From an uncultured bacterium (GTDB lineage: Bacteria > Krumholzibacteriota > Krumholzibacteriia > LZORAL124-64-63): a stretch of DNA of 64,000 nt. Positions 3,824 through 18,317 of the stretch are shown here, piece by piece; the stretch's first letter is position 1; each line of letters begins with the position of its first letter. Under the pieces are notes generated by a model. The model was not told where the DNA came from. It was given only the letters and a program-made list of their open reading frames with translations, and did not search any database. The DNA lies in assembly GCA_963732385.1 (NCBI GenBank), contig CAVSZB010000005.1, positions 224,001 through 288,000 of the forward strand. Direction: 5' to 3'. The position numbers and the translations under genes are program-made.

Positions 3824-5440
3824 TCACTCCCCGCCGCCTCCCAGGGCCGGTCCCTTGATCTCCGGCAGCTGCCAGACACTGTCGATTACGGTGCCATCCA
3901 CCCACTTGATGGCCGCCACGACGCGATCGACCGTTTCCGGCGGCTGGGGCTTGCCGCACAGCGCCTCGACCTCGGCCTTGATCTCGGTCAGCGGCCGGAT
4001 CGGCAGCGAGGAGCCGCGCAGCTTCGCCAGCAGATCCGTGCGCCGCGGGTTGATCGCGATGCCGCGCTCGGTCACGATCACGTCGACCAGCTCGCCCGGA
4101 CCGCACAGCGTGGTGACCCGGTCGACGAGGACCGGGATGCGGTCGCGGAACGACGGGATCGGCAGGATCGTGCACCTGCCGAAGAGGCAGTTCTGCCAGC
4201 CGCCGATGCCGTGCAGCAGGCGGCCGTCGGAGTGGGTCACAACGTTGGCGTTGAAGTCGACGTCGACCTCCGTTGCGCCGAGCACCGTGGCATCCACCAT
4301 CGACGCGAAGTTCCCCTTGCCGTGCCAGTTGTAGCTGGTGAACGGCGAGGTGTTGACGTGCCCGGGGTTCTCGCGCATCGAGCGGACCCCTTCGAGATCG
4401 AACGTCTGCCCGTCGAGGATGTAGTCGGTCAGCCCCTCCTCGAGCATCTGCACGAGGTACTGCGTGGAGCCACCGCGCACGAAACGGGCCTTGATCCGAC
4501 GCTCGCGCATGATGTCGCGCAGGAACAGGGCGAACGACAGCGCGGTGCCGCCGGCGCCGGCCTGGAACGAGAAGCCGTCGCGCACGATGCCGGCCTCGTC
4601 GCAGAAACGCGCGGTCAGCTCGGCGATCAGCAGGCGGTCGGGCGACTTGGTGATCTGCGTCGTGCCGGAGACGATCTTGGCAGGGTCGCCGATCTTGTCC
4701 ATGACCACGACCTGGTCCACGTGGTTGCCCTGGATCTGCCACGGCACGCAAGGGAACGGCACCAGGTTGTCGGTGACGACGATGACATGGTCGGCGTACT
4801 CGCTGTCGGCCAGCGCGAAGCCGATCAGGCCGCAGGCCGACGGCCCGCGATCTCCGGTGGCGTTGCCGAACGGGTCGGCGGTCGGCGCGGCAATGACGGC
4901 GATGTCGATGTGCACCTCGCCGTCCTGGATCGCCTGGTAGCGCCCGCCGTGCGAGCGCAGCACGCACATCCCCTTCATTTTCCCAAGGCTGCAATAATCG
5001 CCGAGCGGGCCGTTCATCGACCCTTCGATCCAGCGCACGACGCCCGATTCCAGCAGATCGATCACCGGGGCGTGCACCGGGAACGACGCGCTCGGAAACC
5101 AGCGGATGTCCTTGACGCCCATCTCCGCGGCGGCCTTGAGCACGGCGTTGGCCACGAGGTCGCCGTTGCGCAGGTGGTGGTGCGTGCCGATGGTCATGCC
5201 GTCGCGCAGGCCGGCCTTCTTCAGGGCCGCCTTGAGATCGGGCGCGACCTTGTTGCCGTCCAGCGGGTACTGGCCGCAATGCGCAATCGGCGGCACCGCC
5301 CGGCGTCCCTGCGGCACATGCTTCGCCACCCCCTGGTACGGGATGGCCGCCTCGCCGTTGATGAGCGTCGGCACCAGCCGCCCGGCGGCGTTCTCCTGCA
5401 GCGGCACGCCGGCCGCGTCCTTGCGGATCGCCTTGCTCAT
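3824..5440 (-). CDS. citF: citrate lyase alpha subunit / citrate CoA-transferase
   Basis: GLRDGMTIGTHHHLRNGD, RSHGGR, FQAGAGG and GATEVDVDFNANVVT motifs. Confidence 0.9.
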   Translation of the reverse strand: MSKAIRKDAAGVPLQENAAGRLVPTLINGEAAIPYQGVAKHVPQGRRAVPPIAHCGQYPLDGNKVAPDLKAALKKAGLRDGMTIGTHHHLRNGDLVANAVLKAAAEMGVKDIRWFPSASFPVHAPVIDLLESGVVRWIEGSMNGPLGDYCSLGKMKGMCVLRSHGGRYQAIQDGEVHIDIAVIAAPTADPFGNATGDRGPSACGLIGFALADSEYADHVIVVTDNLVPFPCVPWQIQGNHVDQVVVMDKIGDPAKIVSGTTQITKSPDRLLIAELTARFCDEAGIVRDGFSFQAGAGGTALSFALFLRDIMRERRIKARFVRGGSTQYLVQMLEEGLTDYILDGQTFDLEGVRSMRENPGHVNTSPFTSYNWHGKGNFASMVDATVLGATEVDVDFNANVVTHSDGRLLHGIGGWQNCLFGRCTILPIPSFRDRIPVLVDRVTTLCGPGELVDVIVTERGIAINPRRTDLLAKLRGSSLPIRPLTEIKAEVEALCGKPQPPETVDRVVAAIKWVDGTVIDSVWQLPEIKGPALGGGGE

Positions 5441-6675
5441 GACGTTCCCCCCTCGCCGCCTGCGGTCGGCTCGCGCCAGTCGGCCGCCAGCCGGCCGGCC
5501 GCCAGGGCGGCCGCCACGGTCGCCTGCGCCCGCTTGACCACCGGCGGATCGATCATCTTGCTGCCAAGCGAAACCACGCCCAGCCCCCTCGCCTGCGCCA
5601 CCTCGAAGGCGCGCACGATCTTCGTCGCCTTCTCGATCGCCGCCGCCGGCGGCGCGAAGGCGTCATGCACCACCGGAATCTGCCGCGGGTGGATGCAGCC
5701 CTTGCCCACGAAGCCGAGCGACCGCGCCTCCTCCACGGACCTGCGCAGCGCGTCCATGTCGGCCACGTCGGAAAAGACCGTGTCGATCGGCTGGACGCCG
5801 GCCGCGCGGGCGCCGTTGAGCACCTGCGCGCGCGCCCAGAACGACTCGTGCCCCTCGAGCGTGCGCTCGGCGCCGATGTCGGCGGTGTAGTCCTCGAGAC
5901 CGATGGCGAGCCCCACGACAGTGTCGGTCGCGCCCGCGATCTCGTACGCCAGCCACGCGCCGCGAGCCGACTCCACGATCGGCATCAGCCAGACCGGCGC
6001 GGCGCGATGGTGCGTTGCGCGCAGCGCGTCGATGCGATCGCGCGCGGCGACCACCTGTTCCGGAGCCTCGACCTTGGGCAGCAGCACGAGCTGCACGCCG
6101 TGCGGCACGATCCAGTCGAGGTCGGCGAGCCCATGCTCGCCCTGGTTGATGCGTACCATCCGCTCGGCGCCGTGGAAATCGACCACGCGCAGCGCGTTAC
6201 GCACCAGCACCCGGGCCGCGTCCTTCTCGGGCGGCGCCACCGAGTCCTCAAGATCGAGAATCAATCCGTCGGGCTGGTGCAGACCGGCGTTGGCCATGAA
6301 CTTGGGCTCGTTGCCCGGCAGGTAGAGCCGCGTGCGGCGCAGCCGTTCGCGCTCGCTGCCGCCGGCGGTGTCGGCGCGCGCGGCCGGCAACCAGACGCCG
6401 GCGCAGTCGGGCCAGGCACGCTTCACGGCCGCCTCGAGCCGGGCGTCGAGAACGAACGGCAGGGCCCCCTGATCATCCACCTCGATCGCTGCATGCGCGA
6501 CGCCGAGGGCGTCGCAACCCGCCTCGATACGCCGGCGGATGTCCGCCCCATAAAGCGCCTGAACCTTGCTCTTCAGATCGACCGTGATCCCGCCGGCGTC
6601 GCGGATGTCGATTCCGATCCAGCAGTCGGACCGGACCTCCTTGCCGCGGCGGCCCGCCTCCCCACGTCGGGTCAT
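5437..6675 (-). CDS. citE: fusion of citrate lyase acyl-carrier (CitD-like) and beta/lyase subunit (CitE)
   Basis: The N-terminal ~90 aa are CitD-like (RSD...SKVQALYG...DQGALPFVLDARLEAAVKRA). They are followed by RRTRLYLPGN, LDLEDSVAP and GKGCIHPRQ of CitE. ATGA overlap with citF. Confidence 0.85.
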   Translation of the reverse strand: MTRRGEAGRRGKEVRSDCWIGIDIRDAGGITVDLKSKVQALYGADIRRRIEAGCDALGVAHAAIEVDDQGALPFVLDARLEAAVKRAWPDCAGVWLPAARADTAGGSERERLRRTRLYLPGNEPKFMANAGLHQPDGLILDLEDSVAPPEKDAARVLVRNALRVVDFHGAERMVRINQGEHGLADLDWIVPHGVQLVLLPKVEAPEQVVAARDRIDALRATHHRAAPVWLMPIVESARGAWLAYEIAGATDTVVGLAIGLEDYTADIGAERTLEGHESFWARAQVLNGARAAGVQPIDTVFSDVADMDALRRSVEEARSLGFVGKGCIHPRQIPVVHDAFAPPAAAIEKATKIVRAFEVAQARGLGVVSLGSKMIDPPVVKRAQATVAAALAAGRLAADWREPTAGGEGGTS

Positions 6676-7072: not shown

Positions 7073-7750
7073 CTATCCGTTCCGCCATTTAGCCGCCATC
7101 CCCCACGCCCAGAGTCCGACCGTGAGAATGGTCGTGAAGGTCCCGACCAGACGCGGCTCAAGACGCAGGGGGGCGGACCCGGAGACTCTTTCGCGCAGGC
7201 TCCGGCCGAGAGCGAAGCCGACGGGCACCGCCAGCGCGCACCCGGCCGCGGCCAGGCTCCCCCCCACACCGACATGCTGCCAAAAGCCGCCGATCCCCTG
7301 CCCGCGCCAGAATTCGGAGCGGAAGACGAAGATCATGGCAAGAAAGAACAGGACATGGCCGAGGTAACAGGCAAGGGCAGCTTTCAGGCCGGCCAGACGC
7401 AAGGACTGGCGGTTGCCCGGGATCGAGACGGCCGCGGCGCGCGTTGCGGGCGACCCCCAGCCGAAAACCAGGTCGAAGGACAGGCCCAGCAGCACGATCC
7501 CGGTGAGGTGACAGGCGAAGAAGGGCACATTGAGAAATTTGTACAACATAGCCAGGGAGGCGATGACCGTGGAGCCGCCGCGATGGGGAACGAATTGCGC
7601 GGCCACGGCCAGCAGGAAGAACCCGATCACTGTCAGGTAGACCGAGGCGAAAGGAACCGCGGCCGAGTAGAGCGCATTCCCCAGGATCGCCTCGCTGAAT
7701 CCCCACAGACCGCCGAAGAGAAGAATGGCCGGCAGATGTTCCTTCTTCAT
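7073..7750 (-). CDS. integral membrane protein, possibly ECF S-component-like
   Basis: About 6 hydrophobic segments and an N-terminal FGGLWGFSE motif. ATGA overlap with the upstream gene. Confidence 0.6.
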   Translation of the reverse strand: MKKEHLPAILLFGGLWGFSEAILGNALYSAAVPFASVYLTVIGFFLLAVAAQFVPHRGGSTVIASLAMLYKFLNVPFFACHLTGIVLLGLSFDLVFGWGSPATRAAAVSIPGNRQSLRLAGLKAALACYLGHVLFFLAMIFVFRSEFWRGQGIGGFWQHVGVGGSLAAAGCALAVPVGFALGRSLRERVSGSAPLRLEPRLVGTFTTILTVGLWAWGMAAKWRNG

Positions 7751-8277
7751 GCGCGTGTCCTCCTGTTCCATTCCGCCTGGGCCGCCAGCACCTCGAGCAC
7801 TGGCCCTATCATTGCGGGTTCAAGTCCCTTCCGGGCCAGCGTCAATTGCCAGGCGGCCGGATCCGGGCCGGGGCCTCCCCGCTCCAGCACCACCTGGGCC
7901 AGGGAACGGAGCAGGTCCGCGTCGGGACGCGCACCGGGCTGAAACCCGTGGCCCCCGGCCGAAACTTCATCTTCAAGAAAGATAATTATGTCGCCCCTCC
8001 CGCGGCGGGCGAGCGCATTGCTTTCCACCACGAGGTGGCGGTGGCCCACCCCCTCCGCCTGCCGGAGAAACGCGTCCATCTCTTCGTCGGTCCGGAAGTA
8101 GCTCTCCGCTTTGCCGGGTCGGCGCTGGCTCGTCCCCTGTTTGGCGTAGACCGCCCCCGGCAGGATGCGGCTGAGCGCCAGGGCCACCTGCGTCTTGCCG
8201 ACCCCGCGGCCAGCTCCGCAGACGATCCAGAGCAGCGGCCTCCCGGGGGGCGACCCGACATCGGTCAACGGAAACAC
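7747..8277 (-). CDS. small P-loop NTPase, MobB-like
   Basis: Walker A GAGRGVGKT and LVVESN. Lies in the AOR operon. Confidence 0.6.
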   Translation of the reverse strand: MFPLTDVGSPPGRPLLWIVCGAGRGVGKTQVALALSRILPGAVYAKQGTSQRRPGKAESYFRTDEEMDAFLRQAEGVGHRHLVVESNALARRGRGDIIIFLEDEVSAGGHGFQPGARPDADLLRSLAQVVLERGGPGPDPAAWQLTLARKGLEPAMIGPVLEVLAAQAEWNRRTRA

Positions 8278-8567
8278 CCCAGCTGACAGTCATGGATCTT
8301 GATCTTGAGCAGGTTCATGAGCCGGCCGATGGAGCCCGCCGGCGCGTGGCAGACCGCCGCCATTTCCAGGGCGATGGAGCAGAGGATGCGCCCGCCCGGG
8401 ACCAGGCGCTCAAGGTCGCACTCCGCGGGCTGCGCTGCCTCGACGAGATTGAGCTGTCCGCCGGGCGCGTCGACCAGCGTCCAGGGCAGCGCCTCGGCGT
8501 CGATGAATTCCTGAAGGGAGGCGCGCCGTTGCGCGCCGACACCGATGGTGATTGCCGTCGGGTTCAT
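8265..8567 (-). CDS. small Cys-containing hypothetical protein (C-terminal KIxxCQLGCF)
   Basis: 100 aa ending CSIALEMA...IGRLMNLLKIKIHDCQLGCFR. Overlaps the downstream gene and lies 6 bp after thiS. Confidence 0.7.
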   Translation of the reverse strand: MNPTAITIGVGAQRRASLQEFIDAEALPWTLVDAPGGQLNLVEAAQPAECDLERLVPGGRILCSIALEMAAVCHAPAGSIGRLMNLLKIKIHDCQLGCFR

Positions 8568-8573
8568 AACCGG

Positions 8574-8774
8574 TCACCCTCCGTGGGCCAGGTGAAATAC
8601 CGCAAGGCTCGCCCCGTCGGGCAAAAGCCGCAGGGAGTATTCGTCCTCGGGCACCAGAACGCCGTCCACGGTCACGGTCATGAGGACATAGTCATAGCGG
8701 AGGATGTCCAGCACATCCTGGACGGTCAGCCCGTCCCTCCACTCGATCCGATCCCGATCATTGACGATCAGCAT
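8574..8774 (-). CDS. ThiS/MoaD-like sulfur carrier
   Basis: 66-aa beta-grasp-like protein ending in GG. Confidence 0.9.
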   Translation of the reverse strand: MLIVNDRDRIEWRDGLTVQDVLDILRYDYVLMTVTVDGVLVPEDEYSLRLLPDGASLAVFHLAHGG

Positions 8775-9386
8775 TTACCCGCCGCACTCCTCCAGGCCCC
8801 GCCGGACCAGGAACTCCACCGCCGCATTGGCCTGCAGGTTGGCCGCAATGGCCACGCGGGGGGCGCACAATCCCTCGCTCGAATCCGATTCGCCGTCGCC
8901 GCACATGACGATCATACCGCTTCGCCGCACGCGCAACGCTTCGGTGTTTCCCAGGCCGGACACGCCGCTCGCCGCCACTACCGGACGGTCGGGAAAGGCC
9001 CGGCACCAGGCCTCGATCAGCCATTGCTTGCTCTCGGCCCGGTCGAAAGCCTCGATCAGGACCTCGGCCTGGGCGAAGATCGCAGCGACGTCGGCCGGCT
9101 CCAGCCGCAGATCCCGCGCGCTGATCCGGACCTCCGGATTGATCGAACGGAGCCTGGCGGAGAGGGCCTCGGTCTTGAGCCGGCCCACGTCCTCCAGGAA
9201 ATACTGCTGCCGGTTCAGGTTCGATTCCTCGACCCGGTCGAAGTCGACCAGGATGAGCCGCCCGACTCCCGCCCGCACCAGAGACAGGGCGGCCTGGCTG
9301 CCCAGCCCGCCACAGCCGGCAATTCCGACCGTCGACCGGCGCAGGATCGCGGTCGAACCGGGGACATTGCAATCGAAGATCCCCAT
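8775..9386 (-). CDS. thiF: ThiF/MoeB family sulfur-carrier adenylyltransferase
   Basis: GIAGCGGLGS, DFDRVEESNLNRQ and EAFD motifs. Confidence 0.9.
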   Translation of the reverse strand: MGIFDCNVPGSTAILRRSTVGIAGCGGLGSQAALSLVRAGVGRLILVDFDRVEESNLNRQQYFLEDVGRLKTEALSARLRSINPEVRISARDLRLEPADVAAIFAQAEVLIEAFDRAESKQWLIEAWCRAFPDRPVVAASGVSGLGNTEALRVRRSGMIVMCGDGESDSSEGLCAPRVAIAANLQANAAVEFLVRRGLEECGG

Positions 9387-9418: not shown

Positions 9419-11416
9419 TCAGGATTCCTGGTGCCCTGCCACGATCCGGACGATCTCCGGCAGGTCGATGCCGAGTTCCTTCAGCCGCGCCAAAGACGGC
9501 ACGCCGTTCGGCGTCCAGCCGCGGGCCTGGTAAGCCGCGTCGGTCACCTGCCGGTACTGGTCCTCGCGGTGCCGGCGGAGGATCGCCATCTTCTCGGCCG
9601 TACTTCGACCCGCCGGATCGACCTTGAGGATTTCGAGGAGTTGTTTGTCGTAGCGCTCGGCGCGGGACTCGTACTCTTCCGGCGTGACCGGCCCCATGGC
9701 ACGGTACGGTGGAATGTCGTCCTCGCGCTTCCCTTTGCCCAACAGAACCGAGAGGCAGCGCTGCAGATTGTACACCCGGGCCGACTGGGCCAGCATCGAC
9801 GCCTCGTCGAGCGGGCGTCCGGTCATGCCTTCGAAAAACCTGAAGTAGTTCTCGACGTGCCCGGGAATCTTGGCCGCCAGCTTGGGCGGCAAAGTCTTGT
9901 TGTCGGCGGGGACCACGTCATTCCAGATGATCTTGCAGAGTCCCTGCAGCCCGAACCAGGTCCGCCAGAGGGGGAAGTAATACAGGGCCTCGGCCTTGTC
10001 CTGGAAGGTCGGAATCTGGTTGTTGACCATATCCATGAAGATGAGCCAGGCCTCATCGTGCTGGGGCCCCTTGATGGCCAGCGTATACCCGGCCTGCTGC
10101 GCGAGGGACTCCTTGGAGACGTACTCGGAGTACTCCAGCCCCTTCGCCTCCATCCCGATGTCCTGCAGGAACGCCGGATCGGCCCCGTACTCGGCCACCC
10201 ACTTCCGCTTGAGCCAGCGGATTCCCTGCCCCACGTCGACGCCGAAGCCCTCTCCGCGCGCCGTCTGGTGCAGGAGTTCGAGCACCGCGTCGCCGGCGCC
10301 GAAGTTGAGCTTCAGGCCGCCGGTGCGGGTCTCGTCGATCACGCCGGCTTCGAAAGACTCCATCACGAAGGCGATGCAGGTCGCCATCGAGATCGTGTCG
10401 AGGCCGTAGGTGTCGCAGTAGAAGTTGAACTCCACGCAGAGGTCGGCGTCGAAGCAGCCCATGTTGGCGCAGCCGGCAGCCGTTTCGTACTCGGGGCCGT
10501 CCACGATGACCCGCTCCCCGGCGTAGGGGCCGGTCCGCAGGAGGTAGCCGTCGACCGCCTTGGCGCAGGCCATCGAACAGCCGTGCCAGCAGCCGTCGGC
10601 CGTGCCCTGCGTGAAGAAGTCCTGCTTCAGGACCTGCTTGTCGAGCCGGTAGGTCTCGGGATGGGAGCCGAAACGGTAGTTCATGACCGGCAGCAGGTCG
10701 TACTTGTCCATGACACCGACGATATTGGCCGTGCCGACCTCGCGCATGCAGCACTGGGACTTGTCCAGGGTCGCCATCTCGGCGTTGATCTTCATGCCGT
10801 GGTCGCGGATCAGCTGCGGGTTGGCCGGCCGGTTCAGGTCGTCGACGATCTCGATGGCTCCGGTCGGACAGACATAGGCGCACGAGGTGCAGCCGATGCA
10901 GTGCGGGTCGACCTCGTTGAACGGCATGGTCAGGTGGCGCTTGATGCCCCGACCGGCAAAGTCGAGGATGCGCTGCAGCACGAATTCATCGCAGGCCCGG
11001 ACGCAGTGCGTGCAGAGGATGCAGGCCTGGGGATTTTCGTCGGTCCATTCGCTGCGAAAGCGCGACTCGGTGACTCCGCACTGCGCGGCGACCTCGCGAA
11101 TGACCGGCACATTCGGCCAGCGGCCGAGGTACATCTCGGCCAGCACCTTCCGATGGTTTTGCACGCCCTCCGAAGCTGTTTCGACCTTCATTTCACCCCG
11201 GACGGGATAGTTGCAGGCCGTGACCAGGCGCTTCCGCCCGCGCACCTCCACCTCGCAGACGCAGAGCCGGCAGTTTCCCCCGGGAACGAGATCCTTGTGG
11301 TGGCAAAGGGTCGGCACCTTGAATCCGGCCTTTTCCACGGCGGAGAGGAGGTAAGAATCCCTGGCCGCGACGATCTCGACACCGTTGACCGTGAGCTTGA
11401 TTTTGGGGTCGGCCAT
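9419..11416 (-). CDS. fusion: HydA/NuoG-type N-terminal [2Fe-2S]+2[4Fe-4S] domain and aldehyde oxidoreductase domains 2-3 (AOR_C)
   Basis: PTLC..GNCRLC..TAC, CILCTHCVRAC and CIGCTSCAYVCP come first. AOR motifs follow: GCWHGCSMAC, GPEYET, CDTYGLDTIS, GLCK, Y..RGWT.NGVP. TGATG overlap with the upstream gene. Confidence 0.9.
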   Translation of the reverse strand: MADPKIKLTVNGVEIVAARDSYLLSAVEKAGFKVPTLCHHKDLVPGGNCRLCVCEVEVRGRKRLVTACNYPVRGEMKVETASEGVQNHRKVLAEMYLGRWPNVPVIREVAAQCGVTESRFRSEWTDENPQACILCTHCVRACDEFVLQRILDFAGRGIKRHLTMPFNEVDPHCIGCTSCAYVCPTGAIEIVDDLNRPANPQLIRDHGMKINAEMATLDKSQCCMREVGTANIVGVMDKYDLLPVMNYRFGSHPETYRLDKQVLKQDFFTQGTADGCWHGCSMACAKAVDGYLLRTGPYAGERVIVDGPEYETAAGCANMGCFDADLCVEFNFYCDTYGLDTISMATCIAFVMESFEAGVIDETRTGGLKLNFGAGDAVLELLHQTARGEGFGVDVGQGIRWLKRKWVAEYGADPAFLQDIGMEAKGLEYSEYVSKESLAQQAGYTLAIKGPQHDEAWLIFMDMVNNQIPTFQDKAEALYYFPLWRTWFGLQGLCKIIWNDVVPADNKTLPPKLAAKIPGHVENYFRFFEGMTGRPLDEASMLAQSARVYNLQRCLSVLLGKGKREDDIPPYRAMGPVTPEEYESRAERYDKQLLEILKVDPAGRSTAEKMAILRRHREDQYRQVTDAAYQARGWTPNGVPSLARLKELGIDLPEIVRIVAGHQES

Positions 11417-13299
11417 CACCGTACCTCCACGGCGCCGCGGGTGCAGGTCTCGACGCAGATGCCGCACTTGATACACTTGCTGTACAGTATGGAGTGGGTC
11501 TTGCGGGGCTCGCCCTCGATCGCGCCGGTCGGGCAGGAGCGTCCGCAGGCGGCGCAGCCGTCACACAGTTCCGGGAGGATCGCGTAGGTGATGAGCTCCC
11601 TGCAGACCCCGCCCCGGCAGCGCTTTTCCCGGATGTGCTCCAGGTATTCGTCCCGGAAATAGCGCAACGTGCTCAGGACCGGGTTCGGAGCGGAACCGCC
11701 CAGCTGGCAGAGGCTCGTGTCGCGGATCGTGGCGGAGAGTTCCTCCAGGAACTCGAGGTCGCCCTCGCGCCCCTGGCCGTTGCAGATACGTCCGAGCGTG
11801 CCCGCCAGGGCGAAGAGACCTTCGCGGCAGGGCGTGCATTTGCCACACGACTCATCGACCAGGAAATCGATGAAGTACCGGGCCACATCGACCATGCAGG
11901 TATGATCATCCATCACGATCATCCCGCCCGAGCCCATCATCGACCCCGCCTCCGTCAGGGAATCGAAGTCGACCTGCATGTCGAGGAGACTCTCGGGCAG
12001 GCAGCCGCCCGACGGACCGCCCGTCTGCACCGCCTTGAAGGTCCGCCCCTCGGGGATCCCGCCGCCGATGTCGAAGATGATCTCCCGGAGCCTGATCCCC
12101 ATCGGGACTTCGACGAGCCCCGTGTTGCGGATATCGCCCACCAGGGAGAAGACCTTGGTGCCGGAGGAGCCGTGCCACGGGTTCCCGCTCCCATCACCGG
12201 TGCCGATCGCGGCGAACCAGGCGGCCCCCTTCTCGATGATGACCGGAATGTTGGCCCAGGTTTCGACATTGTTCAGGACGGTCGGCTTGTCGCGAAAACC
12301 GTACTCGACATTGTGCACATACTTGGCCCTGGGCTCGCCCGCGCGGCCGGACATCGAGGCCATCAGGGCCGTCGATTCTCCGCAGACGAAGGCCCCCGCG
12401 CCGCGGTGCACCGCGATGTCGAAAGAGAACCCGGAACCCAGAATCCCCGTCCCGAGAAGTCCCTGTTCACGGGCCTGCCCGAGCGCGATGTGGAGCCGCT
12501 CCATGGCGAGCGGATACTCCTTGCGGATGTAGATGAAACCCTCCCGCGCCCCGACGGCGAAGGCGCCGATCAGCATCCCCTCGATCACCGAGTGGGGATC
12601 GGTCTCGATGATACTGCGGTCCATGAAGGCGCCCGGATCCCCTTCGTCGCCGTTGCAGATCACGAACGCGACCTCGCCGCGTTCCTGCCGCGCCTTGAGA
12701 CAGGACTCCCACTTGACGCCCGCGGGAAAACCGCCGCCTCCGCGCCCGCGCAGACCCGAGGCGATGATCTCCCGGATGACCTCCTCGGGTGACCGGGAGG
12801 TCAGAACCTTCCGAAAGGCCTGATATCCGCCGCGGGCTATGTAGTGCCCGATCTGCTCGGGGTCGATGAGTCCCTTGTTCCGCAGGGCGATCAGTTGCTG
12901 CTTGGCGAAGAATCCGATCTCGTCCATCCGGCGGCTGACGACGCCACTCACCGGATCCCTGTACAGGAGGCGCTCGACGACCTGGCCGTTCATTAGATGC
13001 GAATCGACGATCTCCTTCAGGTCCTGCGGACCGACCTTCTGGTAGAAGACACCCTCCGGCTGCACGACCACGATGGGGCCCATGGCGCAGAACCCGTTGC
13101 ATCCGGTCTGCACCACCAGGTAGTCCCGCTCCAGGCCCCGCTCGCGGAGTTCGGCGTTCAACCCGTCGCGCACGCTGTACCCGCCGGCCGAGAGGCAGCC
13201 CGTGCCGGTGCAGACCATGAGCATGGCCTTGTAGCCCGCCTGGAGCTTGGTCTGCTCGGCCGCGATCCGTTCCAGGTCCGTGATGTCGAGCCTAGGCAT
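11416..13299 (-). CDS. HydB/NuoF-like (BfuB) FMN/NADH subunit
   Basis: N-terminal thioredoxin-like 2Fe-2S (CTGTGC, TGCNGFC), GLRGRGGGGFP, NGDEGDPGAFMDR, GGPSGGC, ESCGKCTPCREG and a C-terminal 2x[4Fe-4S] domain. Confidence 0.93.
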   Translation of the reverse strand: MPRLDITDLERIAAEQTKLQAGYKAMLMVCTGTGCLSAGGYSVRDGLNAELRERGLERDYLVVQTGCNGFCAMGPIVVVQPEGVFYQKVGPQDLKEIVDSHLMNGQVVERLLYRDPVSGVVSRRMDEIGFFAKQQLIALRNKGLIDPEQIGHYIARGGYQAFRKVLTSRSPEEVIREIIASGLRGRGGGGFPAGVKWESCLKARQERGEVAFVICNGDEGDPGAFMDRSIIETDPHSVIEGMLIGAFAVGAREGFIYIRKEYPLAMERLHIALGQAREQGLLGTGILGSGFSFDIAVHRGAGAFVCGESTALMASMSGRAGEPRAKYVHNVEYGFRDKPTVLNNVETWANIPVIIEKGAAWFAAIGTGDGSGNPWHGSSGTKVFSLVGDIRNTGLVEVPMGIRLREIIFDIGGGIPEGRTFKAVQTGGPSGGCLPESLLDMQVDFDSLTEAGSMMGSGGMIVMDDHTCMVDVARYFIDFLVDESCGKCTPCREGLFALAGTLGRICNGQGREGDLEFLEELSATIRDTSLCQLGGSAPNPVLSTLRYFRDEYLEHIREKRCRGGVCRELITYAILPELCDGCAACGRSCPTGAIEGEPRKTHSILYSKCIKCGICVETCTRGAVEVR

Positions 13300-14602
13300 G
13301 GTCCGCACCCCCCGGAGCCCTTTTCGCCGCCATCTTCTTGACCAGCCGGGCCACGTCTCTGGCTTTGACGTTTCCCACGATCTCGTTTCCGAACCGCACC
13401 ACCGGAGCGAGGCTGCAGGCGCCGAGACAGGCCACCGGTTCGAGGCTGTACCTGCCGTCTTCGGAGGTCTCGCCGGCCTGGATCCCAAGCACCCGCTCGA
13501 AGCCCGCCAGAATGAGGGCCGAGCCCTTGACATGGCAGGCTGTCCCCATGCAGACCTGGATCACCGTCTCGCCCCGCGGTTCGAGGCTGAAGGCCTTGTA
13601 GAAGGTGGCGATGTGATAGAGGTAAGCGGCCGGCACGCCCGTTTCGAGACAGATCTCATCGAGGGCCGTCTTCGGGAGGTGCCGGAACCGCTCCTGCACA
13701 TCCTGAAGCATCTCGATGACGTATTCCGGGTCGTTGTTCCACTTGCGGACAATGGCCCGGACCTCCTCCACTTCGTTCGCGCAGGTCAGCAGAGACAGGC
13801 GCTTCGGAGTGATCTGGGCCGCCACCTTGTTCTCGGCGATGCGCCAGGCGGGGGTGATGCCAGGATTCTTGATCACGAGAGCCTTGAGTTTCTTGTCGCG
13901 GAAGACCGTGCCGATTCCGCCGCGCCCCGCCTGCTTGAGCCGCGCCACGCGCCGGCGCCAGTCCCAGAAGGAGAAGTTCAAAACCCCCATCCGCGTGTGC
14001 TCGGCGCCGCGTCCGGCGGAGACGACGGCGATGTTCCGCATGTCGAGTTCATCCGCGGCGTACATCCTGGTCAGCTCCTCAGCCAGGATGTGCGAGTCGA
14101 CGCTCTCGAGCGGGGCGGCCTCGATCGTGATCCGGCGGGCGGCCGCGTCGATGGCGATGATGGTCTCCTGCGACGCCTTGCCGACGATGGCCAGCGCATC
14201 GAAACCTGCGAATTTCAGGAAAGGGCCGAAATACCCCCCGACATTGCAGTCGATCACGATGTCGGTCAGAGGAGAGATGGCCGTGACCAGCGTCTTGCCC
14301 GAACCGGGAAACGACGTCGTGCCGCCGAGCGGGCCGGAGCACAGGCAGATCGGATTCTCCGGGCTATCCCACTTCGTGTCCGCGCTGATCTCCTGGAGCG
14401 TGATCCAAAGGTCGAAGCCCTTGCCCCCGGTCCAGAGTTCCTTCATCTGCTCCGTCACCGGATGCAGGGTGATCTCGTTCCGGCCGAGATCGATCCGGAG
14501 CCAGCGACCGGCATAGCCCCGGTAAAGCTCGACGGGGTCGTAGACCAGCTCCTGGAGCAGGCAATGCGCGCTCCGCATTCGTTCCGTGTCGTGCATGGGC
14601 AT
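13292..14602 (-). CDS. fusion: aldehyde oxidoreductase N-terminal domain (AOR_N) and HydC/NuoE-like [2Fe-2S] domain
   Basis: LRIDL..GGKG, SPLT, GGYFGPFLKFAGFDAL and AGRGGIGTVF..KKLKAL come first. ATFY..F, CMGTACHVKG and CLGACSLAP follow. GGAG RBS before 14602. Confidence 0.9.
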   Translation of the reverse strand: MPMHDTERMRSAHCLLQELVYDPVELYRGYAGRWLRIDLGRNEITLHPVTEQMKELWTGGKGFDLWITLQEISADTKWDSPENPICLCSGPLGGTTSFPGSGKTLVTAISPLTDIVIDCNVGGYFGPFLKFAGFDALAIVGKASQETIIAIDAAARRITIEAAPLESVDSHILAEELTRMYAADELDMRNIAVVSAGRGAEHTRMGVLNFSFWDWRRRVARLKQAGRGGIGTVFRDKKLKALVIKNPGITPAWRIAENKVAAQITPKRLSLLTCANEVEEVRAIVRKWNNDPEYVIEMLQDVQERFRHLPKTALDEICLETGVPAAYLYHIATFYKAFSLEPRGETVIQVCMGTACHVKGSALILAGFERVLGIQAGETSEDGRYSLEPVACLGACSLAPVVRFGNEIVGNVKARDVARLVKKMAAKRAPGGADHA

Positions 14603-14764
14603 GCCGCTGTCTCCCGGGTAGTCGGGTATCCGCCCCGGAGAGGCTGCGGCCGGAAGCACGGCCACACTCCCCGGCGAGTCGCCCACCTGCAACTTCAGAA
14701 AGTGCCCGGCGAATGGACCCCAAGCGGGCAATCAGGATTGAGCTGGAATTTAGGCCAGGCGCAG

Positions 14765-17069: not shown

Positions 17070-18317
17070 CTACTGCCCCGGCCCGCGGCTCCTGCAGATG
17101 GCCTCGATCCAGTAGTCTACGTTCAGAATGGGGATGAAGGTTCCAAACGAAGCGTATTTTGCCAGCGTCGGATCCTTCAGGATCTCCTCCCTGCTCCGGC
17201 CCTCGTCGATCCAGCCGGCAACCGTCTCCCGCACCGTGACCAGCATCTGGCGGTAACGCGCGACGTCCCGGGTCGTGCCGCTCTTCCCGTGGCCGCAAAC
17301 CAGAATCGCATCCTCGGGAAAAACGTCGATCACCTTCGCCAGGATCTCCAGATACTCATCGACGGCTATCGTTACCGAGGGGAAGGACTGCAGGATCAGC
17401 AGATCGCCCATGTCCACGACGTTCGATCCGGCAAAGTGGACGATCATGTCGGCGTCGGTGTGGACGCCGCTGGCGGGGATCAGACGGATCTCTTCGCCGC
17501 CGAAGTCGAACGTGTAGTACCTGTCGAACGACCTCCCCGAGCGGCCAAACAGCGGACCGTCGCCGGGGAGGATCACCCCCCCGGCCACCAGTTCTTCGAG
17601 ATGCGACAGGGAGATGATCCGGGTCTTTTCGCCAGCGATGTCGTTGCCTTCGATGTGATCGGGATGCTCGTGGGTATTGATGATGGCAACGATCTCGCGA
17701 TCGTCGAGCTTCCGGAGCTCCTTCCGCAAATCGGGCAGCGTCCTTCGCCAGCCGGTGTCGACCAGGAGCAGGCCGTCACGACCGGCGCAGGCCAGGATGT
17801 TCGGCGCCTCCCCGTAGGAAAACGCGATCTTGTGGATCCCGTCCGCCAGGGAGAGCACCTCGGGCGCCGGGATCCGGGTTTCCACGGCCCCCCTGGCCGC
17901 GAGCAGACCGATGATCCGCTCGGATTTATTCATGACGGCCAGGTCCAGGGCGGTATCGCCGCCGCTGCTTGTGATATTGGGATCCGCGCCGTGATCGAGC
18001 AGGTACGCCACAACGTCCGCGTGGCCGAAGTACACGGCGTAAATGAGTGACGTTTCGTTGGCGGAATTCCGCGCGTTCAGGTCAGCGCCCATGCCGACAA
18101 GGTAGGCGACGACCTTCAGGTGGCCCCCCTGAGCGGCATAGATCAGCGGGGTCTTGTTGTTGACGTTCATCGTTTCCATCTGGGTGGAGTCCGCTTCGAC
18201 CAGAGCCCTTACCCGCGCCAGATCACCGGCCCTGGCCGCGTCGAGAATCTCCTGGGCCACCGCGCCGGATCCGTTCAGGAGCGTGAACAGGCAGCAAGTG
18301 AAGAACATCCGAATCAT
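17070..18317 (-). CDS. secreted ankyrin-repeat + MBL-fold hydrolase
   Basis: TPLIYAA/TSLIYAV/TALDLAV ankyrin repeats, then NTHEHPDH, HTDAD, MGDL and GHG. Confidence 0.85.
   Translation of the reverse strand: MIRMFFTCCLFTLLNGSGAVAQEILDAARAGDLARVRALVEADSTQMETMNVNNKTPLIYAAQGGHLKVVAYLVGMGADLNARNSANETSLIYAVYFGHADVVAYLLDHGADPNITSSGGDTALDLAVMNKSERIIGLLAARGAVETRIPAPEVLSLADGIHKIAFSYGEAPNILACAGRDGLLLVDTGWRRTLPDLRKELRKLDDREIVAIINTHEHPDHIEGNDIAGEKTRIISLSHLEELVAGGVILPGDGPLFGRSGRSFDRYYTFDFGGEEIRLIPASGVHTDADMIVHFAGSNVVDMGDLLILQSFPSVTIAVDEYLEILAKVIDVFPEDAILVCGHGKSGTTRDVARYRQMLVTVRETVAGWIDEGRSREEILKDPTLAKYASFGTFIPILNVDYWIEAICRSRGPGQ

Follow-up and report, generated by a model that had tools for sequence, protein, structure and literature searches.

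Can the catalytic subunit of a tungsten oxidoreductase (WOR) be divided between two polypeptides and wired to an electron-bifurcating (Bfu) module in between? This question is raised by three overlapping genes in a stretch of 64,000 nucleotides from an uncultured bacterium of the Krumholzibacteriota (GenBank assembly GCA_963732385.1, contig CAVSZB010000005.1, positions 224,001 to 288,000; hereafter the window), in which a bfuC-bfuB-bfuA cassette interrupts worL, the gene for the catalytic subunit (genes A, B and C; Table 1). The architecture is genuine and is neither a product of chance nor an assembly artefact, since the same fusions occur in 80 of 80 related loci (WorL-N with BfuC) and 66 of 66 (BfuA with WorL-C) and DNA contigs from a related strain bridge both junctions. 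The reading that we favour, with moderate confidence and from sequence features, is that worL split around bfuCBA encodes a 1:1 NAD(P)+/ferredoxin-bifurcating aldehyde oxidoreductase (AOR) that would do without the WorS subunit and would carry a single tungsten (W)-bis-pterin site across two chains.

Table 1. Features of the split worL locus, its neighbours and other molybdenum- or tungsten-enzyme genes of the same genome (aa, amino acids)
Feature	Position	Strand	Remarks
Gene A	14602-13292	minus	436 aa; WorL-N (residues 1-250), ~20-aa linker, BfuC/HydC (NuoE-like)
Gene B	13299-11416	minus	627 aa; complete BfuB/HydB with B5, FMN/NAD(P) site, B1, Zn site, B3/B4
Gene C	11416-9419	minus	665 aa; Fe-S domain of BfuA with WorL domains 2-3 fused directly behind it
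WorL domain 1 half	13859..14602	minus	ends KALVIKNPG; K103, N120, R227
bfuC-bfuB-bfuA cassette	10844..13858	minus	3015 bp, in WorL domain 1/2 linker
WorL domains 2-3 half	9422..10843	minus	begins DDLNRPANP
ThiF-family adenylyltransferase	8775..9386	minus	NF006395 above cut-off
ThiS-like sulfur carrier, WorX-like	8574..8774	minus	GG end; PF02597
Small protein ending CQLGCFR	8265..8567	minus	cluster of 14 loci; no Pfam match
P-loop protein (GAGRGVGKT)	7747..8277	minus	cluster of 10 loci including the window; no Pfam match
DMSOR-family gene, two xanthine-dehydrogenase-type genes, two XdhC homologs (window's genome)	C2:123966-126860, C8:258762-261062, C3:219560-221872, C7:199227-199991, C2:206666-207142

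worL is interrupted in frame by a bfuCBA cassette

The sequence-only reading of the locus had described an N-terminal AOR domain fused to HydC, a complete HydB, and HydA fused to AOR domains 2-3, and the Pfam domain scan bears this arrangement out. Gene A contains AFOR_N (residues 32-245, E 6e-45) followed by 2Fe-2S_thioredx (282-424); gene B an N-terminal thioredoxin-like 2Fe-2S domain, Complex1_51K, SLBB, NADH_4Fe-4S and two Fer4 domains; and gene C Fer2_4 (5-82), a 4Fe-4S dicluster domain (130-189) and AFOR_C (209-650, E 3e-81). As read from the sequence, the open reading frames (ORFs) overlap by 8 nt (A/B) and in the string TGATG (B/C). KALVIKNPG corresponds to residues 240-248 of chain A and DDLNRPANP starts at residue 192 of chain C. 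That both junctions, near 13860 and 10843, are in frame and lie in the linker between WorL domains 1 and 2 was confirmed by alignment to an intact 712-aa relative, P0242, in which K245 of chain A stands opposite R236 and D192 of chain C opposite L242; the split halves thus abut, so that no WorL stretch has been lost, and together they span P0242 end to end with a gap-free junction. GC content is flat over the locus (0.64-0.66).

The best PDB matches were HydC/WorC and residues 3-210 of 1aor for gene A, 7t2r_B, 7q4v_B and 9mqx_B for gene B, and 9mqx_A for the N-terminal part of gene C, and in sequence and Foldseek searches no PDB chain extended over the two parts of A, nor over those of C. A whole-genome search showed the A and C halves to be the sole AFOR_N and the sole AFOR_C matches in the window's genome (G000; 95.8% complete, 9 contigs; the genomes compared in this work are metagenome-assembled), and hence there is no intact WorL copy with which either half could pair. 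DNA coverage of the junctions, which the earlier reading had left to be checked, is provided by contigs of a related strain in run X5 that cross them gap-free (10025-12637 and 12610-14622). RNA-library contigs lie over parts of the locus, two of them bridging junction 1 and none of the RNA pieces listed bridging junction 2; these contigs do not demonstrate transcription.

The split form recurs across phyla and descends from intact WorL

A pattern scan of GTDB genomes yielded 197 stretches encoding relatives of gene A, of which we kept the best 80 as related loci; by record titles they represent at least 18 phyla, with 19 loci unassigned. WorL-N and BfuC share one ORF in every one of the 80, so the architecture does recur in other genomes, and among the gene A homologs listed 120 of 120 carry both Pfam domains. 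Fusion of BfuA to WorL-C could be followed in 66 loci, the remaining 14 ending too early to show it, and was present in each. The three-subunit form proposed earlier holds for the window's copy but not as the general form, because BfuB is additionally fused to A in 43 of 79 loci, which gives a two-gene form. The two WorL halves were never found in the same ORF (0 of 66), nor did the 126 loci examined include any single-chain form; in genome G070 an open frame of 1785 aa, considered as a full single-chain fusion, proved to be a shadow frame upstream of gene C and was rejected. Of 208 genomes from the window's phylum, 33 have a match of gene C's type.

In a search of 50%-identity representatives, the nearest unsplit relatives of the C half were intact WorL proteins of 701-862 aa. 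Identity to P0242 is 48% in the N half and 56% in the C half, and the intact parent-clade relatives P0242, P0243 and P0241 range over 48-53% and 47-60%, respectively. A 30-row tree of the C half placed its 11 split rows in one clade (SH-like approximate likelihood ratio test, SH-aLRT, 100) among intact WorL, with P0241/P0243 as sister, and FastTree gave the same nesting for both halves on 62-63 rows (support labels in its printout were shifted by rerooting and were not used). Because the split clade is monophyletic and nested among intact relatives, the simplest history would be an in-frame insertion of the bfuCBA cassette into the domain 1/2 linker of an intact ancestral worL of ~710 aa. Judged by codon changes, both WorL halves are under purifying selection: the ratio of nonsynonymous to synonymous substitution rates (dN/dS) against locus L001 is 0.098 for WorL-N, 0.026 for BfuC, 0.111 for BfuB, 0.132 for BfuA and 0.030 for WorL-C (274 codons), and the window's own branch carries 3 nonsynonymous and 25 synonymous changes in WorL-N and 3 and 20 in WorL-C.

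Several loci depart from the common layout. L091 (791-2806) and P0246 represent a fast-evolving split lineage, ~42% identical, in which WorL-C has lost the equivalents of the catalytic Glu and His and kept the Cys pattern, and which is possibly non-catalytic. A second, independent split in this lineage, which stood apart from the main split clade in a quick tree, was considered and dropped, as a single clade was not rejected (approximately unbiased test, p-AU 0.78) and the likelihood was higher when the lineage was constrained to join the main clade. In L034, L038, L044 and L051, 0.7-0.9 kb separate bfuB from gene C, while in L018, L027 and L040 an intact, distant WorL gene of ~600-670 aa adjoins the split operon. 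Locus L086 of a congener (G002:C11:229917-233621) contains many frameshifts, reflecting either sequencing error or decay. The intact WorL P0241 (862 aa) carries an insertion of ~115 aa at residues 471-586 of its C domain that belongs to no Pfam family, and its sequence cluster includes an uncultured Cloacibacillus entry.

Conservation of catalytic and bifurcation-signature residues

WorL residues were mapped by alignment to Pyrococcus furiosus AOR (PfAOR, 1aor), formaldehyde oxidoreductase (FOR, 1b25) and 8c0z. The claim that the catalytic motifs are intact held for both halves: all 59 near-full-length copies share T229, C276, C280, C284, E311, D335, D340, Y432, H453 and C494 of gene C, and all 80 loci share K103, N120 and R227 of chain A. 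By comparison with PfAOR we take C276, C280, C284 and C494, all four on chain C, to be the ligands of the WorL [4Fe-4S] cluster, and Arg76, Asn93, Arg182, DxxGLD and DxxGxC to be the pterin/Mg-binding positions of PfAOR, among which N120, R227, D335 and D340 are kept and two others are replaced (see below). T229, E311, Y432 and H453 are the equivalents of Thr243, Glu313, Tyr427 and His448 (PfAOR numbering), which the available text of PMC13328260 lists for aldehyde-oxidising WORs. An aldehyde would be the presumed substrate, in a parent clade distant from any solved enzyme.

The ligand set of BfuABC (B1-B5 including the B2 Zn site, flavin mononucleotide (FMN); C1; A1/A2/A4) is complete in the window and nearly invariant in relatives. 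The BfuC cluster Cys of gene A are C351, C356, C392 and C396. BfuA has clusters A1, A2 and A4 without the A3 His, as does WorA, and its 12 Cys are invariant in 65 of 65 relatives. According to the available part of PMC7311640, bifurcating beta-subunits are marked by A/E-x-M, a Phe and GGPSG; gene B has all three signature regions (PGAFM, F304 and GGPSG), and the BfuB domains of 65 relatives have AFM or AYM in 54 cases and GGPSG in 63. For the proposed NAD+/ferredoxin bifurcation, then, the sequence signatures are in place, and the coupled reduction itself would be expected from them. The GES motif of gene B was discarded as a sign of NADP specificity, both 9mqx_B and 8a6t_B having it.

As a separate observation, BfuB is shortened or its FMN/NADH site is damaged in L015, L048, L059 (~906 aa), L079, L080 and L126 (~790 aa), and likewise in L041 (BfuB of 297 aa), L018, L053, L055, L056 and L069; these variants are candidate ferredoxin-only forms.

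A modelled two-chain active site suggests a direct route to BfuA

AlphaFold2 modelled gene C with a predicted local distance difference test (pLDDT) value of 82.6 and a predicted template modelling score (pTM) of 0.74, and gene A with 83.8 and 0.58, its two domains not being mutually fixed across a low-confidence linker (A251-259). A complex model of chain C with residues 8-262 of chain A scored 0.92 against 0.00 for the best control, on a scale whose mark is reached by 116 of 157 solved complexes and by 2 of 215 mismatched pairs; the runs agree in at least 92% of contacts and the pLDDT of the partner is 91. The halves thus dock as had been predicted, but since they would be expected to pass through their likeness to solved AORs, the docking speaks for compatibility and not for binding. 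The modelled interface with WorL-N includes residues C171-180, which by the numbering of hydrogenases would be the A4 cluster loops, and C276-282, the WorL cluster loop. Because it joins these loops, the interface fits a role of BfuA in place of WorS or ferredoxin as electron acceptor of WorL. Residues 249-259 of chain A touch chain C in the model, and W253 is invariant.

Neither the window operon nor the flank families found in at least 5 loci include a WorS gene. We propose that the gene products form a heterotrimer (in loci with an A-B fusion, a heterodimer) and that WorL-N of chain A would close on WorL-C of chain C within the same unit and rebuild the W-bis-pterin site. An aldehyde would be oxidised at W by the Glu/His/Tyr/Thr set present on chain C, and electrons would pass to the WorL [4Fe-4S] cluster and from there straight to A4 of BfuA, whose domain is fused to WorL almost without linker and would replace WorS; this direct transfer is suggested by the missing WorS gene and by the model contacts. 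By way of A4, A2 and A1 the electrons would reach the BfuBC core, where, given the WorABCSL precedent and the signature residues, NAD(P)+ and ferredoxin would be reduced together. One W site would serve each Bfu core, with no nanowire, and ThiS/ThiF may act in cofactor maturation.

Comparison with known systems

The bifurcating Class IV WOR, WorABCSL (Acetomicrobium mobile, 9MQX; Eubacterium limosum WOR1; available text of PMC12318220, PMC9304861 and PMC13328260), shares with the split system a W-pterin WorL-type unit joined to BfuABC, the short BfuA (A1/A2/A4, no A3), a close BfuB with the GES motif and the C-B-A order. Its WorL is intact and separate, whereas in the split system WorL lies on two chains, fused to BfuC and BfuA, and belongs to a ~710-aa clade remote from 9mqx_D (E 1e-16 to 1e-18). 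Where WorA has a C-terminal zinc finger and adaptor helix, the split system has WorL-C. WorABCSL also has WorS and an (SL)3 nanowire; lacking WorS, the split system would have no (SL)3 nanowire and its stoichiometry would be forced to 1:1. Class IV enzymes consist of five separate subunits encoded in SLCBA or CBASL operons, in contrast to L(N)C-B-A L(C) in two or three genes; the WorA, WorB and WorC domain sets are present here, A and C as fusions, whereas WorS and the five-subunit make-up are not.

With single-chain Class I WorL (PfAOR, 1AOR; FOR, 1B25) and the uncharacterised intact ~712-aa P0242, P0243 and P0241 the split enzyme has domains, cluster ligands and catalytic residues in common, and its ThiS/ThiF neighbours match worX/thiF, but the known enzymes consist of one polypeptide with free ferredoxin as acceptor and the split system would have a two-chain active site wired to Bfu. 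Type 1 Bfu enzymes (FeFe-HydABC, NfnABC) likewise carry a C-terminal catalytic domain on BfuA that feeds A4; in the split system that domain is two-thirds of a W-enzyme, with the remainder on BfuC. Class II benzoyl-CoA reductase BamB-I combines a WOR-family subunit with BfuABC homologs (BamGHI), but BamB is intact and more distant, and no BamC/D/E-like genes were found among the recurrent neighbours of related loci.

No split-type member appears in the available text of PMC9304861, which has Wor1 and Wor2 only, and no split WorL form in the available parts of PMC13328260, PMC12318220, PMC9304861, PMC7311640, PMC12096430, PMC11237513 and PMC7325909; the main texts of PMC13328260 and PMC9304861 do not contain the word 'split'. 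The impression that the architecture was new thus stands, no published description having been found in a search outside which most subscription papers lay, and the split bifurcating WOR is a widespread variant, frequent among uncultured anaerobes and apparently undescribed in print. The WOR census of PMC13328260, as far as its text was available, counts proteins with IPR013983 and IPR001203 in one polypeptide; here these domains lie on genes A and C and never in one ORF in 66 loci, so that the split family escapes it. With 197 gene-A-relative stretches in one scan, compared with 102 bifurcating WORs in clade 87 of that census, split forms could make up a large share of bifurcating WORs. As an object for studying the coupling of Bfu bifurcation to a low-potential donor, a two- or three-chain 1:1 enzyme would be much simpler than WorABC(SL)3, and natural variants that lack the FMN site could serve as controls. 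The modelled split suggests that a W-bis-pterin pocket can be built across chains.

Cofactor supply and the weighing of alternatives

Genes for pterin synthesis and tungstate uptake accompany part of the family. A ThiS-like gene is present in 48 loci and thiF in 39, with 55 loci reaching 1.2 kb or more downstream; wtpA-like and wtpB-like genes occur in 13 loci each, moaA in 10 and moeA in 9 (labels taken from L134). Beside the locus of G215 lies a wtpABC-modE-moeA-moaA-moaC-MOSC-mogA cluster whose WtpA is above the TIGR03730 cut-off. moaC was found in 30 of the 33 split-bearing genomes of the window's phylum, and family f3 of that sample comprises 20 genomes with both the split gene and moaC, 20 with neither, 1 with just the split gene and 2 with just moaC, these being kin and not independent. 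Linkage to wtp/moa genes and co-occurrence with moaC in relatives support a tungsten-pterin enzyme as the predicted product of the split family. The label 'tungsten' given to the window's enzyme can thus be kept for the family, and in the window's genome it depends on salvage or an unknown route.

Several observations weigh against the reading that we favour. In the pterin site, PfAOR Arg76 is replaced by Lys, as in FOR, and the Asp of the last DxxGxC motif is changed to Gly in the split clade (Gly, Ser or Ala). Even the nearest WorL proteins of known structure are remote (E 1e-25 to 1e-20; no more than 20% identity by Foldseek), so the substrate could differ, and in 8 of 65 relatives the FMN/NADH site of BfuB is missing its G[DE]PG stretch, by which the NAD arm would be dispensable in some lineages. 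In the window's genome, moreover, MoaC, MoeA_N and the C-domain of MoaA were without match, and tblastn found no WtpA, ModE, MoaC, MOSC or MogA. Its sole moeA (C1:142858-144006; L135:12862-14007) has two in-frame deletions that take out ~95 aa, including DRAAMDG, and other motifs are changed.

The moeA ortholog of genome G208 is intact and is followed by a mogA-like gene that is missing from the window's genome. In the latter, moeA has a dN/dS of 0.48, which differs from that of the WorL halves (p 3e-9) but not from that of two neighbouring control genes (p 0.12; a third control gene, a kinase, was set aside for its poor alignment at 27% identity), and the case for an apparent decay of the pterin pathway therefore rests on the deletions and lost motifs. 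TupA/ModA families were searched in this genome alone, where the PF12849 and PF13531 matches resemble, in our estimation, phosphate-, sulfate- and polyamine-binding proteins. No MoaC or MoaA was found in the congeners G001 (92% complete) and G002 (62%); G001 and G208 are possibly one genome and were counted once. Of the 80 genomes, 19 lack MoeA_N, and 18 of these lack MoaC too; in 13 genomes followed up (G000, G208 and 11 of the 18) we found no WtpA and no convincing MoaA, the best MoaA score being 96 bits compared with 220-340 in three controls. Among 151 genomes of the phylum of G240 (identified as Cloacimonadota from the title of L033; the request was for completeness of 90% or more, a value not shown in the output), gene A occurs in 10, moaC in 14 and both in 0. 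Some of these absences surely reflect incompleteness, probably for example in G231 and G256; G240 and G317 have contigs of 3.7-3.9 Mb. The 'pterin-less' label is no more clustered on the tree than in shuffles (11 changes versus 12.7). Absence of MoaE was dropped as evidence of a missing pathway, since the moaC-positive G215, G213 and G123 also lack it.

Genomes that lack the pathway nevertheless retain 97-99% of the invariant WorL columns, and xanthine-oxidase-family enzymes are encoded in 5 of 5 tested; the DMSOR-family gene of the window's genome (Table 1) has a twin-arginine-like signal. Because the gap is genome-wide and xanthine-oxidase-family enzymes are kept as well, cofactor salvage or an unrecognised synthesis route is most likely to apply in this genome, in preference to a pterin-free role of WorL. 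Literature listings, as far as available, include cofactor uptake in C. elegans and, in a parasitic nematode, the loss of its synthesis, and nothing evident on Mo/W-cofactor uptake in these bacteria. Retention of the enzyme alongside undetectable moaA/moaC makes bacterial Mo/W-cofactor cross-feeding testable in digester and sediment communities.

How do these points bear on other readings of the locus? The same split bifurcating architecture might catalyse another reaction, for instance confurcating carboxylate reduction or the conversion of another WOR-type substrate, such as an aryl-CoA, a sulfonate or a sugar-phosphate aldehyde. In its favour are a parent clade without close solved members, a change in the last pterin motif and the fact that only 5 of 92 WOR clades have a known role in the available text of PMC13328260, yet the invariance of the four residues typical of aldehyde-oxidising members, the aldehyde dehydrogenase gene adjoining some loci and the lack of Bam-type partners among recurrent neighbours make a different reaction rather unlikely. 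Less likely still is an aldehyde oxidoreductase that does not bifurcate and reduces NAD(P)+ alone or ferredoxin alone. Uncoupled aldehyde oxidation can reduce either acceptor (PMC12318220, available text), and, besides the 8 relatives with a damaged FMN/NADH site, BfuB is short in L015, L048, L059, L079, L080 and L041; in the window's copy, by contrast, the B1-B5 set is complete and none of the three signature regions is missing, and WorABCSL requires both acceptors in vitro, according to the part of the literature available.

About as improbable, in our view, is that the WorL halves of this organism are cofactor-free, either as a relic that has not yet decayed or as a pterin-free scaffold for Bfu. 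The missing MoaC, MoaA, MogA and WtpA matches, the truncated moeA and the frameshifted locus of the congener G002, which may be sequencing error, would fit such a state, whereas the scarcity of nonsynonymous changes on the window's branch and the retained WorL columns speak against it, and the xanthine-oxidase-family enzymes in 5 of 5 pathway-lacking genomes fit genome-wide salvage better. Pairing of WorL-N and WorL-C in trans between ABC units, giving rings or filaments, draws on the loose linker of chain A and on the filaments formed by related WORs, as described in the available literature, but it is opposed by the contacts of A249-259 with chain C, by the invariant W253 and by the lack of a WorS-type polymerising subunit; we consider it very improbable, and it would leave the electron path the same. 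A chimeric assembly, or a pseudogene arising from a recent insertion, is to be regarded as refuted: 80 loci in many phyla, independent contigs over both junctions and strong purifying selection speak against it and no support for it was found. Returning to the split bifurcating aldehyde oxidoreductase, we offer as a tentative extension, which could well be wrong, that it represents a widespread undescribed W-enzyme class, 1:1 bifurcating, WorS-less and with a two-polypeptide pterin site, which in several lineages, among them this genus and Cloacimonadota, would be under selection without known pterin-synthesis or WtpA genes, obtaining its cofactor from neighbours or by an unknown route; the two-piece site might then perhaps open like a clamp to take in cofactor already made.

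Neighbouring genes and further observations

Homologs of the small protein ending CQLGCFR (Table 1) lie, in most relatives, within a divergent upstream cluster bearing wtp/moa genes, and the P-loop protein is probably the window's member of a family in that same upstream cluster, the member having been picked by its motif. Rfam gave no riboswitch match in the window or in four related loci. In L136, L137 and L138 (genomes G240, G317 and G373) the split operon is followed by thiF and then by an aldehyde dehydrogenase gene, confirmed by Pfam in L136; thiS is also present in the operon of L136, and a small DUF1858-like gene stands upstream in L136 and L137. Elsewhere in the window, at 3824-6675, a citrate lyase alpha gene (CitF) lies beside a gene that fuses an acyl carrier protein (ACP) domain to a citrate-lyase-beta-type domain, and at 17070-18317 ankyrin repeats are fused to a metallo-beta-lactamase-fold domain.

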